From UHGV virus genome UHGV-0236124: DNA of 33,147 nt; one strand, given 5' to 3'. This stretch comes from a virus. The notes beneath the pieces were generated by a model. The model was given only the letters and a program-made list of their open reading frames with translations. It had not been told where the DNA came from and ran no database searches. Numbering within the stretch: position 1 is the stretch's first letter; each line of letters begins with the position of its first letter. The translations under genes were made by a program, and so were the position numbers. Below are positions 13,741 to 15,203 of this stretch, one piece after another.

Positions 13741-13968
13741 ATGTTAACCAGAAGGGAAAAAGATATGCTAAAACAGCAAGATATGACAGAAACCGCCGCC
13801 GCAGTCCTTCATTTCTTACCTGCTGACAAGTGGGTAACGCCACGCATGATGACGAGAACTACCGGAGTAAGCGAAGCCCGGTGCCAGTTAATACTGACTC
13901 AGTTAGTTCTGGCGGGTCTGGCGAAGGATAACGGCGGGTACGGGAATAAATTCAGACGCTGCCAGTAA
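13741..13968 (+). CDS. small hypothetical protein, possible winged-helix DNA binder
   Basis: 75 aa ORF upstream of the methyltransferase; start ambiguous (ATGs at 13741, 13765, 13783); weak support. Confidence 0.3.
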   Translation: MLTRREKDMLKQQDMTETAAAVLHFLPADKWVTPRMMTRTTGVSEARCQLILTQLVLAGLAKDNGGYGNKFRRCQ

Positions 13969-14118
13969 TGGCGGTTTCCTGCTGTGAAAATGGGCGGCTG
14001 GTGGGTGTTGGTAGCACCTGCCAGCCATTCGCTCATGCTTACTGGTCACAAGCGAACCATGGCCCACTGCTTTAGCGCAAAAGCAGAGTGAGCCTACCAG
14101 AGTTACGCTTACTGATCC

Positions 14119-15171
14119 ATGAAAAATACTGTAAAAATAAACAGTGTTGATTTAATCAACGCTGATTGCCTGCATTTTATTCAGTCCCTGCCTGATGATT
14201 CCATTGACCTGATTGTTACCGATCCGCCGTACTTCAAGGTGAAACCCAACGGCTGGGACAATCAGTGGAAAGGGGACGAAGATTACCTTAAGTGGCTGGA
14301 CCACTGTCTGGCCCAGTTCTGGCGGGTGTTAAAACCTGCCGGAAGCCTTTACCTGTTCTGTGGGCATCGCCTGGCATCTGATATTGAGATCATGATGCGT
14401 GAACGTTTCAACGTGCTTAACCATATCATCTGGGCGAAGCCGTCCGGACGTTGGAATGGGTGTAATAAAGAAAGTCTGCGCGCATATTTTCCTGCCACAG
14501 AGCGCGTTCTGTTTGCTGAACATTACCAGGGGCCATATCGCGGCAAAAGTGACGGCTATGCAGCAAAAGAAAGGGAACTCAAACAGCACATAATGGCACC
14601 GCTGATATCGTATTTCAGGGATGCTCGTGCCGAACTGGGTATAACGGCAAAACAAATTGCCGAAGCCACAGGTAAGAAAAATATGGTTTCCCACTGGTTT
14701 GGTGCCAGTCAGTGGCAGTTGCCGAATGAGGCTGACTATCGGAAGTTACAGGCACTGTTTTCCCGTATAGCGGCAGAGAAGTTTCAGGAACAACAACTGG
14801 AACAACCACACCACCAGCTGGTGGCATCTTATGATTCACTGAATCGTAAATATTCTGAATTGCTGGATGAGTTTAAATCTCTCCGGCGCTATTTCTCCGT
14901 ATCAGTCTCCGTGCCTTATACCGATGTCTGGATGCATAAACCCGTTCAGTTCTACCCGGGGAAACATCCGTGTGAGAAACCGGCGGATATGCTCAGGCAA
15001 ATAATCAATGCCAGTAGTCGACCTGGTGATCTGGTTGCTGATTTTTTTATGGGATCCGGTTCCACAATAAAAGCAGCAATGGCGCTGGGGCGTCGGGCCT
15101 TAGGTGTTGAGCTTGAGTCAGAGCGGTTTAACCAGACAGTGAAAGAGATAAACGAGCTGGTGGGGAAATAA
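14119..15171 (+). CDS. DNA N6-adenine / N4-cytosine methyltransferase (beta-class, orphan)
   Basis: 350 aa; catalytic motif IV TDPPYF near the N-terminus and AdoMet motif I FFMGSGST near the C-terminus; no restriction partner adjacent. Confidence 0.85.
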
Positions 15172-15175
15172 TCTG

Positions 15176-15203
15176 GTGGCCACGTCAGGTGGCCTTTTTA
15201 TTT
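15176..15203 (+). terminator. intrinsic terminator candidate upstream of the lysis cassette
   Basis: ggccac-gtcag-gtggcc followed by tttttattt. Confidence 0.45.

Follow-up and report, generated by a model that had tools for sequence, protein, structure and literature searches.

The presence of a DNA methyltransferase gene without a restriction partner between the late-gene antiterminator Q and the lysis genes of a lambdoid prophage raises the question of what its product modifies and at which stage of phage development. Such a gene was noticed in UHGV virus genome UHGV-0236124, the whole analysed stretch of which (33,147 nucleotides) is called here the window, and an earlier note considered two roles for it, protection against host restriction and modulation of gene expression. 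That note overlooked both the membership of the enzyme in the M.EcoGII family and a conserved structured RNA between the small upstream ORF and the methylase gene.

Family assignment of the methylase

The gene occupies positions 14119..15171 of the + strand and encodes a protein of 350 aa (WP_000799656.1). In its translation the catalytic motif IV, DPPY (aa 35–38, 14221..14232, + strand), lies N-terminal to the SAM-binding motif I, FFMGSGS (aa 309–315, 15043..15063, + strand), which is read within DFFMGSGST at aa 308–316, so that the motif order is of beta-class, as had been proposed. The sole Pfam family matched was PF01555 N6_N4_Mtase (145.9 bits at a cut-off of 26.7, aa 29–341). Both motifs are intact, DPPY and FxGSG being invariant in two alignments of homologues. 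Identity to M.EcoGII was 81%, with 349 of 350 aa aligned and 2 gap positions, none of them large, while full-length comparison gave 89% for Anc291 and 70% for SUPREM/Anc284; all these values are approximate, because the reference sequences of M.EcoGII (PMC11551740 Suppl. Table S1) and Anc291 were machine-read from PDF with small errors. Judged by its sequence, the methylase is a typical representative of the M.EcoGII family, which is already known, and shows no oddity. It is phylogenetically bracketed by M.EcoGII, Anc291 and SUPREM/Anc284, all three of which are non-specific in experiments (PMC5778455, PMC11551740), and because of this family membership it is expected to modify adenine whatever the context.

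The two enzymes M.EcoGII and M.EcoGI, which come from E. coli O104:H4 C227-11 (Murray et al. 2018, PMC5778455), are also prophage-borne and have the same beta-class order, nearly the same length (349 versus 350 aa) and a central HTH of the kind predicted here. What separates the present protein, known from sequence alone, from M.EcoGII is 19% of residues, a divergence that might in principle bring back some sequence preference, and its allele is nearer to Anc291. Anc291 and SUPREM are likewise non-specific m6A enzymes with a modelled Rossmann core, four-helix HTH and charged linker (PMC11551740), but both are synthetic, reconstructed ancestors of the M.EcoGII clade. SUPREM combines E179 with high RNA activity, whereas residue 179 of the methylase is Q, matching the DNA-preferring M.EcoGII clade. 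With curated NCBIfam models the methylase scored below the cut-offs for both the CcrM equivalog NF050803 (68.1 against 830) and the YhdJ-like PRK11524 equivalog NF008572 (109.9 against 292). An MT-A70 enzyme of the kind represented by the PNB-2-dependent phage rRNA methyltransferase was ruled out by the motif, which is DPPY rather than DPPW, and by the match to PF01555 only.

The notable insertion of about 60 aa between the motifs, to which attention had been drawn earlier, is larger and at the same time quite normal. PDB relatives can be aligned with the methylase only at aa 9–115 and 282–335 (E 3e-24 to 1e-6), and the gap between aligned blocks comprises 167 aa versus 74–75 in 8urk/9c3u, or 129 aa versus 30 in M.RsrI, which makes the extra length about 90–100 aa. 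These structures, together with M.MboIIA, CcrM and M.PvuII, share the catalytic Rossmann core with the methylase but are sequence-specific and mostly partnered with restriction enzymes or cell-cycle regulated; the middle region of solved beta-class methyltransferases is 75–100 aa shorter and unrelated. In the methylase this region (aa 147–254, 14557..14880, + strand) does not align to the solved enzymes and is all-helical according to AF2, with predicted helices at 147–173, 177–184, 190–194, 204–223 and 231–254, the model being low in confidence (mean pLDDT 65) because the alignment is shallow and every homologue is at least 76% identical. Alignment to M.EcoGII is free of gaps throughout it, and the AF2 helices occupy matching positions. 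For M.EcoGII, the published model assigns residues 160–237 to a target-recognition domain with a four-helix-bundle HTH and a charged helical linker (PMC11551740). The central region is, most probably, a normal HTH target-recognition domain with a charged helical linker, common to the whole M.EcoGII family, and not a gene-specific insertion.

Late-region cassette and its winged-helix gene

The methylase gene is located in a lambdoid prophage, between Q and the lysis cassette as the earlier note had it. Q (12083..12835, + strand) is of PF03589 type (177.8 bits; phrog_127; its PGAP start was mapped from locus L002) and follows a DUF968/HNH-like protein (11074–12069), the gene of which is common upstream of Q in lambdoid phages. 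A pR'-like late promoter, TTGCAT-17 nt-TAAGAT (12867..12895, + strand), was read by eye and is absent from the consensus-scan list; its position just after Q and before a terminator agrees with the lambdoid pR'/tR' layout. The tR'-type intrinsic terminator AACCCGCCACTGAGCGGGTTTTTT (12942..12968, + strand), annotated in phage Ayreon, shares an exact 24-nt repeat with a second copy (13619..13645, + strand) found by terminator scan, Ayreon annotation and repeat search. This second copy is predicted to insulate the methylase cassette from the lipoprotein moron upstream, and a terminator was found in the same position across genera. Then a promoter/operator-like motif follows, CTTGCTG-N10-ACAAGAGTTATTGGTATGTCA (13705..13741, + strand), which reads TTGCTG-17-TATTGG with a partial dyad and is conserved at 106 unique loci, representing many genera, so that expression of the methylase may not depend strictly on Q.

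The small ORF, previously suspected to encode a DNA-binding protein, is conserved and is the gene with which the methylase is usually paired on its upstream side (13765..13968, + strand; phrog_331). Its likely start is at 13765, preceded by an AAGGG Shine-Dalgarno and giving 67 aa, rather than at 13741. In 89 homologues the helix CQLILTQL is invariant, and some of them give weak matches to PF17782. AF2 predicted a minimal winged helix (pLDDT 88) with the H1-S1-H2-H3-S2-W-S3 topology, and the best Foldseek matches were winged helices of Zalpha (TM 0.82), TrmBL2, IclR and SelB, with TM 0.76–0.82 for Zalpha and IclR. Zalpha proteins are recognized by conserved Asn and Tyr in helix 3 and by Trp in the wing. 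Such identity was rejected, since the fold is alike but these key residues are absent from helix 3 (RCQLILTQLVLAGL) and from the wing (GGYGNKFRR). The stop codon of the ORF lies within a terminator-like hairpin, CTGCCA-GTAA-TGGCGG followed by TTTCC (13959..13979, + strand), in place of which other loci have a strong stem with a T-run, for example GCCTCCAGTGATGGGGGCTTTTTTTT.

The cassette thus consists of a terminator, the promoter-like motif, the winged-helix ORF, the terminator-like hairpin, a leader RNA, the methylase and one more terminator (15178..15203, + strand; stem 15178–15194 plus T-run), which had been spotted before and is also annotated in Ayreon. It separates the methylase from the P21-type holin gene essD (15239..15454, + strand; PF04971, 120 bits; PGAP) that starts the lysis cassette and is followed by an endolysin, whose N-terminus reads as signal-anchor (SAR) type, and by Rz. 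The absence of an adjacent restriction endonuclease was borne out by PGAP, which annotated none in an identical prophage, and by PADLOC, which gave no match for three proteins neighbouring the methylase. Neither tRNA nor tmRNA was found in the window.

In C-protein units of restriction-modification systems a small HTH gene also lies directly upstream of a potentially toxic enzyme gene, with an operator-like dyad and delayed or gated expression, and the cassette may resemble them in this respect. However, C-proteins gate a nuclease rather than a methylase and have an HTH of Xre type instead of a winged helix, and there is no C-box in the cassette. Another analogy is offered by M.EcoPA8orf6770P-PNB-2 of Stx phages, where a prophage methylase follows a small winged-HTH gene of the same strand and requires this upstream subunit, PNB-2, in order to methylate 16S rRNA, so that a small partner can redirect the choice of substrate (PMC10810198). 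That pair is encoded in the early rather than the late region and has no reported structured leader. One can suppose, therefore, that the winged-helix protein and the methylase form a holoenzyme with a directed substrate, such as rRNA or mRNA, which tunes translation or prophage induction instead of protecting DNA. The small gene is found upstream of the leader in 100 of 120 viral loci, M.EcoGII modifies RNA and DNA:RNA hybrids in vitro (PMC5778455), all its assays were carried out without the upstream ORF, and among the structural neighbours of the small protein are winged helices that bind RNA (Z-RNA in the case of Zalpha, SECIS in that of SelB). We nevertheless consider this assumption unlikely. 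The Stx-phage precedent belongs to another family (MT-A70 with DPPW, not PF01555); M.EcoGII alone prefers DNA, its rate on RNA being about 90-fold lower (PMC11551740 Suppl. Table S3); in a minority of loci the winged-helix gene is replaced or absent while leader and methylase are retained; and a physical complex of the two proteins is purely hypothetical.

RNA leader of the methylase mRNA

The spacer between the winged-helix ORF and the methylase contains a structured RNA leader of 139 nt (13983..14121, + strand; 13983..14118 up to the methylase AUG), revealed by a covariance model (CM), covariation and conservation. It includes helices P0 (13991–13995/14062–14066), P1 (13996–14026, arms 13996–14007/14015–14026), P2 (14028–14056, arms 14028–14037/14047–14056), P3 (14067–14086) and P4 (14088–14112, arms 14088–14093/14107–14112), all on the + strand. 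The CM found it in the window as a single copy, only on the + strand (150 bits, E 4e-40). In the alignment of leaders 89% of cells are paired, versus 31–40% if partners are slid, and double changes were registered in 22 of 39 pairs, a level that none of 500 shuffles reached. Similar results were obtained with a MAFFT-only alignment and with the diverged subset; loci of Photorhabdus and Xenorhabdus, having only the 5' part (P1 with flanks, 19–25 bits), were left out of the family alignment. Many G-U pairs fix the strand of the RNA.

The helices differ in their support. Covariation was found in P1–P3, and RNAalifold on the MAFFT alignment yielded P0, P1 and part of P3, while P2 and P4 were proposed by eye and then tested. 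P0 is a proposed pairing, inaccessible to covariation because it is invariant; one double change in locus L026 fits it, but fits other pairings as well. For P4, duplexes between its 5' strand and 57 different tails have an energy of −8.3 kcal/mol, versus −4.2 for shuffled tails, and in diverged clades, where CM alignment is poor and the register differs, 56% is paired. Single-sequence folds gave P0, P2 and P4 low probabilities (0.13–0.15). The Providencia/Morganella clade has a G→A / C→U shift in composition producing pseudo-covariation at many unrelated column pairs, and since this shift swamped the all-against-all covariation scan, simple GC↔AU compensations were discounted.

The leader (median nucleotide identity 0.89) is conserved more strongly than the methylase coding sequence (0.74), unpaired stretches included. 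The RNA pattern, used by itself, picked out 120 viral contigs; in 117 of them the leader is followed by the methylase, whose ATG lies 51–54 nt from the end of the pattern, and the other three are end-clipped loci. In one decayed Erwinia locus (L003) only a methylase remnant follows the leader. A gene of M.EcoGII type, about 95% identical to M.EcoGII (L015), is likewise preceded by this leader and by the winged-helix ORF. Comparison with 4227 families of Rfam 15 returned nothing at E≤1 apart from chance-level hairpin matches to microRNA and plasmid antisense models, far below gathering scores, and a literature string search for core sequences of the leader found no paper containing them. The leader is, apparently, a strongly conserved, folded and as yet undescribed RNA. 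A hidden small gene was rejected as an explanation: the 33-codon ORF 13990–14091 is interrupted by TAG after 7 codons in most relatives, and across 92 leaders no frame is open on either strand.

An ordinary Shine-Dalgarno is missing before the methylase AUG, where UGAUC (14113–14117, + strand) is found, presumably acting through its complementarity to the 16S 3' tail GAUCA. GATC in this position was also considered as a Dam site, but the complementarity to 16S is a simpler explanation and GATC is absent in some clades. In predicted ensembles UGAUC is paired with a probability of 0.81, and several pairings in the leader compete: GGCCCAC has two possible partners, UGGGC and GUGAGCC, the latter of which may also pair with the tail. 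The leader may, therefore, gate translation by controlling access to the start codon, and probably it holds the toxic methylase off until the phage goes lytic. Tentatively, and with slightly less than even confidence, we see in it a new class of cis-regulatory RNAs dedicated to methylase genes of the M.EcoGII family, in which a three-way-junction sensor would bind a ligand or protein (possibly the winged-helix protein, the methylase, or SAM/SAH) and competing helices would open or close the non-canonical UGAUC-N-AUG site, allowing translation only at the right lytic moment. A multi-helix sensor-like core (P0/P1/P2 junction with P3), a variable hairpin beside the start and competing pairings are reminiscent of translational riboswitches and protein-binding mRNA leaders; unlike them, this one has no counterpart in Rfam and its ligand or protein is only a proposed candidate.

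It is rather improbable that the element is instead a separate small RNA gene or a DNA site, for example a recombination junction or protein-binding site, travelling with the methylase. The very high conservation of unpaired stretches would suit such an element, and its frequent position after a terminator means that it could begin a new transcript. But it runs right up to the methylase AUG, at the fixed spacing given above, G-U pairs and covariation indicate a sense-strand RNA fold, no terminator separates it from the methylase, and save for the three clipped loci it was never found without this gene in the 120 contigs.

Proposed role of the methylase

Taken together, the data make it likely that the gene encodes a non-specific SAM-dependent N6-adenine methyltransferase of the M.EcoGII family, which would serve late in infection for anti-restriction and be supplied by an insulated, leader-gated cassette. 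Its position in the late operon, downstream of Q and pR' and fenced by intrinsic terminators, suggests that it is not made in the lysogen. Once the prophage is induced, it would be transcribed along with lysis and head genes by RNA polymerase modified by Q, from the weak promoter of the cassette itself, or in both ways, and the leader, by exposing or burying UGAUC, may set the moment of translation, the winged-helix protein possibly taking part. The enzyme would then modify a large share of adenines in replicating phage DNA before packaging, and the genomes of the progeny would arrive in new hosts already shielded from the many restriction enzymes of Types I, II and III that are blocked by m6A. 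In vitro, methylation by M.EcoGII blocked 12 of 12 restriction enzymes tried (PMC5778455). M.EcoGI and M.EcoGII are silent in the lysogen, leaving no mark in its methylome, and clones expressing them constitutively grow slowly and are unstable (PMC5778455). Terminators on both sides of the present gene are consistent with such silence, and the harm of unrestrained expression may explain the insulated packaging. The net benefit to the phage is uncertain, because heavy m6A exposes DNA to m6A-dependent Type IV enzymes, and no evidence that virions of Ayreon-type phages carry hypermethylated DNA was found in the searchable literature.

Host DNA as the main target appears quite unlikely. In this case late global methylation would disable mismatch repair, SeqA/oriC control and transcription, aiding the lytic programme or excluding competitors, and the progeny would be protected only incidentally. 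The methylase, indeed, cannot tell phage from host DNA, and, judging by the title of a 2025 paper (PMC12403123), m6A reportedly enhances RecA-mediated recombination. Over-expression slows growth and destabilises clones (PMC5778455). However, once late genes are expressed, lysis of the host is a matter of minutes, leaving little time for such effects.

Of the two roles considered initially, anti-restriction is judged most probable, while control of gene expression through a motif marked in the lysogen is improbable. A conventional sequence-specific orphan methyltransferase with such epigenetic function, suggested by the name "site-specific DNA-methyltransferase" in NCBI and UniRef, the PADLOC label MTase_II and the normal size of the central HTH domain, is very unlikely, given 81–89% identity to enzymes shown to be non-specific, the automatic origin of database names, the lysogen methylome left unmarked by M.EcoGI and M.EcoGII (PMC5778455) and the location behind at least three terminators in a late operon. 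For the same reasons the checks proposed in the earlier note would be poorly informative: as adenine is expected to be methylated in any context, a search for a methylation motif would find none even with a fully active enzyme, and, since neither M.EcoGII nor M.EcoGI is active in the lysogen (PMC5778455), a comparison of lysogen methylomes in the presence and absence of the gene would probably reveal nothing.

Distribution and significance

The methylase family itself has already been characterised, and the new part is its packaging in a conserved cassette with a structured leader. Chromatin footprinting and the writing of RNA and DNA methylation make wide use of M.EcoGII as a reagent, and its toxicity is a practical problem. 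To our knowledge, natural control of this toxicity has not been described, and a leader lacking an ordinary Shine-Dalgarno, together with the winged-helix partner and flanking terminators, provides a concrete candidate mechanism. Thousands of M.EcoGII-type proteins are named "site-specific" in databases, although no DNA methyltransferases less specific than the tested members are known. Export of hypermethylated genomes by lambdoid phages is a hypothesis for which the phage group of Ayreon, mEp460, cdtI and SfV offers culturable test systems.

The order of Q, terminators, cassette and holin recurs in Salmonella and Plesiomonas with different families of Q and lysis genes, and the same DNA is present in phages Ayreon, mEp460 and cdtI. 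Cassette DNA was found in 1480 of 5426 complete E. coli genomes. Since this is about a quarter of them, the leader, if it is a true regulatory class, would be a common yet apparently undescribed one, and it is a candidate for a new RNA family from a bacterium that ranks among the most intensively studied.

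The methylase is a member of the M.EcoGII family

The methyltransferase gene reported in the earlier note was confirmed at positions 14119-15171 (+) as an ORF of 350 aa. It belongs to the beta class, with motif IV (DPPY, aa 35-38) preceding motif I (DFFMGSGST, aa 308-316), and its only Pfam match is PF01555 (145.9 bits against a cut-off of 26.7). Over its full length the protein is 81% identical to M.EcoGII, and it shares 89% and 70% of residues with Anc291 and SUPREM (Anc284), two reconstructed ancestors of the M.EcoGII clade; these identities are approximate, since the sequences of all three were machine-read from Supplementary Table S1 of PMC11551740. 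M.EcoGII is a prophage-borne enzyme of 349 aa, which is unexpressed in the lysogen, methylates adenine regardless of sequence context, whether in dsDNA, ssDNA, hybrids or RNA, and makes cells sick if cloned constitutively (PMC5778455). Because the three tested enzymes that bracket the methylase are all non-specific, it can be expected with good confidence to be a non-specific m6A enzyme as well. It is an uncharacterised new allele in a known family, which comprises at least 3063 clusters at 90% identity. Among the 120 clusters listed nearly all names come from Enterobacterales and nearly all carry the label “site-specific DNA-methyltransferase”, which is contradicted by the experimental papers. 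Three clusters (P0094, P0127 and P0200) contain the methylase joined to domains of lysozyme or of outer-membrane proteins (407-439 aa), probably as artefacts of gene calling or assembly across the cassette boundaries.

Identity with CcrM or YhdJ was rejected on NCBIfam scores, as the methylase falls far under the cut-offs of the equivalogs for CcrM and of the PRK11524 (YhdJ-like) model, and a modification subunit of a Type II system was rejected because no nuclease is present. The reported lack of an adjacent restriction endonuclease agrees with the PGAP annotation of an identical prophage, which lists none, and three neighbouring proteins gave no PADLOC match. A DUF968 protein with an HNH-like C-terminal region (11074-12069 (+), phrog_96 “HNH endonuclease”) lies directly upstream of Q, as it does in Salmonella and Plesiomonas loci; it is a common lambdoid gene and was rejected as a restriction partner.

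The insertion of roughly 60 aa between the motifs, which had been considered notable, is real as extra length, since solved beta-class methyltransferases (8urk/9c3u, M.RsrI, M.MboIIA, CcrM) align at aa 9-115 and 282-335 only, but it amounts to 90-100 residues and is no peculiarity of this gene, given its full-length similarity to M.EcoGII. In M.EcoGII the central region is a target-recognition domain of normal size (PMC7544214), modelled as a four-helix bundle with HTH (residues 160-237) and a charged helical linker (PMC11551740). Helices predicted by AF2 for the methylase (147-173, 177-184, 190-194, 204-223 and 231-254) agree with this published model at low confidence (pLDDT 65), because every available homologue is at least 76% identical. 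Thus the ORF, motifs and neighbours of the earlier note were all found, while its interpretation was partly right, the methylase itself being an ordinary member of a known family. Both checks suggested in the note would mislead: a motif search would come up empty since no motif is expected for such an enzyme, and the methylome of the lysogen would reveal nothing if the gene, as expected, is silent in that state. Follow-up is better directed at the conserved leader, together with the partner ORF and promoter-like motif around it, which are undescribed as far as the tools and libraries searched show.

A small winged-helix ORF travels with the methylase

The small ORF upstream (13765-13968 (+)) likely starts at 13765 and encodes 67 aa; it has 89 homologues and belongs to phrog_331 (unknown function). 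Its AF2 model is a minimal winged helix (pLDDT 88), for which the closest solved folds are Zalpha (TM 0.82, rmsd 1.1 Å), TrmBL2, IclR and the SECIS-binding winged helix of SelB; signature residues of Zalpha are absent from the protein. The suggested DNA binding is therefore supported by the model and its fold neighbours, and binding of RNA would be equally possible. The same pair in the same order was found in loci of distant homologues in Salmonella and Plesiomonas, again between an antiterminator and a holin. Since Q, holin and lysin there belong to families unrelated to those of the window, the pair moves as a module. The methylase is distinct from the MT-A70/PNB-2 rRNA methylase of Stx phages, whose fold differs, but that system provides a precedent for a small winged-helix partner altering the action of a phage methylase (PMC10810198). 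The enterobacterial prophage module also occurs, at about 80% identity, in contigs labelled Vagococcus, Geobacteraceae, Chryseobacterium and Collinsella, which are likely contaminated or mis-binned assemblies.

Conservation of the leader

The 150-nt spacer between the two genes has the same length in the window and in the Salmonella and Plesiomonas genera, and is more conserved than the small protein (84% column identity versus 53-58% aa identity). Its element of ~139 nt (13983-14118), which ends at the ATG, was found in about 55 of 80 loci fetched via the methylase protein, with 72-92% nt identity, while the methylase shows 62-93% aa identity in this set. Relative to the window, the median identity was 0.89 for the leader and 0.74 for CDS nucleotides, the leader being higher in 87% of 139 comparisons. 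A coding role was rejected, as the 33-codon ORF of the window is broken by TAG in most relatives and no open frame across the leader is shared by 92 sequences. A tRNA was likewise rejected, and no Rfam family matched. A pattern made from the invariant bases of the RNA alone matched at least 120 contigs of the viral collection. Among the 120 listed, the methylase ATG lies 51-54 nt past the pattern in 117 (in the other 3 the stored stretch ends first) and the winged-helix ORF lies upstream in 100. The same leader and small ORF accompany an M.EcoGII-type gene about 95% identical to M.EcoGII (locus L015).

In Photorhabdus and Xenorhabdus loci (L060-L087) the winged-helix ORF is retained and the leader, ~100 nt before the methylase, is reduced to its 5' portion. 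This variant consists of helix P1 and its flanks (GUGAAAUGGRCGG - P1 - CCAUUCGCC), with a shorter spacer and no UGAUC before the ATG. A decayed copy in Erwinia sp. (L003, 4001-5008) has the winged-helix ORF and leader intact (125 bits) beside a 59%-identical methylase remnant, which adjoins a Q fragment and T6SS Hcp/toxin genes. In a degraded prophage, then, the leader can survive after the gene has gone.

Fold and covariation

Helices were proposed by eye, tested on a plain MAFFT alignment and re-tested after a covariance model had been built. In the MAFFT alignment of 56 sequences 80% of cells were paired, against 29-47% with 3' partners slid, and 19 of 40 pairs were double-changed (equalled by 0/500 shuffles). 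Model-fitted alignments, which are biased towards the model, gave 89% against 31-40% for 92 sequences less than 98.5% identical and 82% against 33-46% for a diverged subset of 48, with 22 of 39 pairs double-changed and 0/500 shuffles equalling this in each. A G->A / C->U shift in one low-GC clade creates spurious “compensation” at many unrelated column pairs, so only pairs with several pair types were trusted. Such variation marks P1 (13996-14026; columns 17-44 UA/AU/CG/GC, 19-42 GC/UA/AU/CG, 21-41 UA/AU/GC/CG), P2 (14028-14056; 51-78 CG/AU/UA/UG, 54-74 UA/CG) and P3 (14067-14086; 92-110 CG/UA), and all three predicted helices are well supported. P0 (UGGGC:GCCCA, 13991-13995/14062-14066) is 100% paired but invariant, and would be the closing helix of a three-way junction that includes P1 and P2; its one double change, in locus L026, is compatible with P0 but also with other pairings. 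P4 (14088-14112) adjoins the start codon, and both its sequence and its register vary. Pairing of its 5' strand with 57 different tails nevertheless comes to -8.3 kcal/mol versus -4.2 for shuffled ones, and 134 of 148 sequences beat their own shuffles. Abundant G-U pairs and a one-stranded covariance-model match in the window (150 bits) place the fold on the sense RNA.

Possible action of the leader

No GGAG-type Shine-Dalgarno lies at a usable distance from the methylase AUG, and a conserved UGAUC (14113-14117) stands one base before it; initiation should therefore be weak and structure-sensitive. UGAUC is complementary to the sequence GAUCA in the 3' tail of 16S rRNA. Within the leader GGCCCAC can pair with either UGGGC (P0) or GUGAGCC (-7.0 kcal/mol), and GUGAGCC with either GGCCCAC or the tail (P4). 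Plesiomonas-like and Yersinia-like clades have a tail with a second GGCCCA or a GAUC...GAUC extension reaching the AUG. In single-sequence ensembles UGAUC is paired with a probability of 0.81, and P0, P2 and P4 reach only 0.13-0.15, although P2 covaries. From this anatomy we infer a leader with two states, in which the sensor is conserved and the expression platform varies. That it serves as a dedicated translational switch is a tentative proposal, with chances slightly short of even; candidate triggers would be the winged-helix protein, the methylase, SAM or SAH, or transcription kinetics.

Terminators, promoter-like motif and phage context

The window is a lambdoid prophage. Its segment 13600-15250 matches phage Ayreon at 99.9% identity and mEp460 at 99.5%, followed by cdtI (about 99%), SfV (about 96%) and a group of Stx2c phages (about 90%). 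Among 5426 complete E. coli genomes 1480 contain the segment, in as many as 8 copies in one genome. The order of terminator, conserved motif, about 20 nt, Shine-Dalgarno and small ORF is constant in 106 unique loci. The motif (CTTGCTG-N9/10-AC(C/A)AGAGTTAT..GT.TGTCA; CTTGCTG-N10-ACAAGAGTTATTGGTATGTCA at 13705-13741 (+) of the window) can be read as a weak sigma-70 promoter (TTGCTG-17-TATTGG) that contains a partial dyad, so the cassette may have its own regulated promoter/operator besides Q-dependent read-through. The stop codon of the small ORF lies in the loop of a hairpin, whose strength as a terminator is high in many loci and low in the window. The terminator reported downstream of the methylase was found as a stem with a T-run after the stop codon (15178-15194) and separates the methylase from the holin. 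Insulation of this density would suit a product whose leakage does harm.

Upstream, the Q antiterminator (PF03589) is followed by a pR'-like promoter read by eye (TTGCAT-17-TAAGAT, 12867-12895) and a tR'-type terminator (12942-12968). An exact 24-nt direct repeat of this terminator (AACCCGCCACTGAGCGGGTTTTTT, 12942-12965 and 13619-13642) brackets a lipoprotein-like ORF of 141 aa (13116-13541 (+), phrog_4748 of unknown function) with a signal peptide and lipobox MKKVLIAAIGFCLVGCAG, for which Pfam, NCBIfam and PADLOC gave no match. This ORF, situated between pR' and the methylase cassette, is probably a moron for lysogenic conversion, and looks as if inserted with duplication of the terminator. 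Downstream of the methylase lies a lysis cassette of phage-21 type (15239-16415 (+)) with a P21-type S holin (PF04971) and then an endolysin; Rz is also downstream. The N-terminus of the endolysin looks like a signal-anchor-release (SAR) domain.
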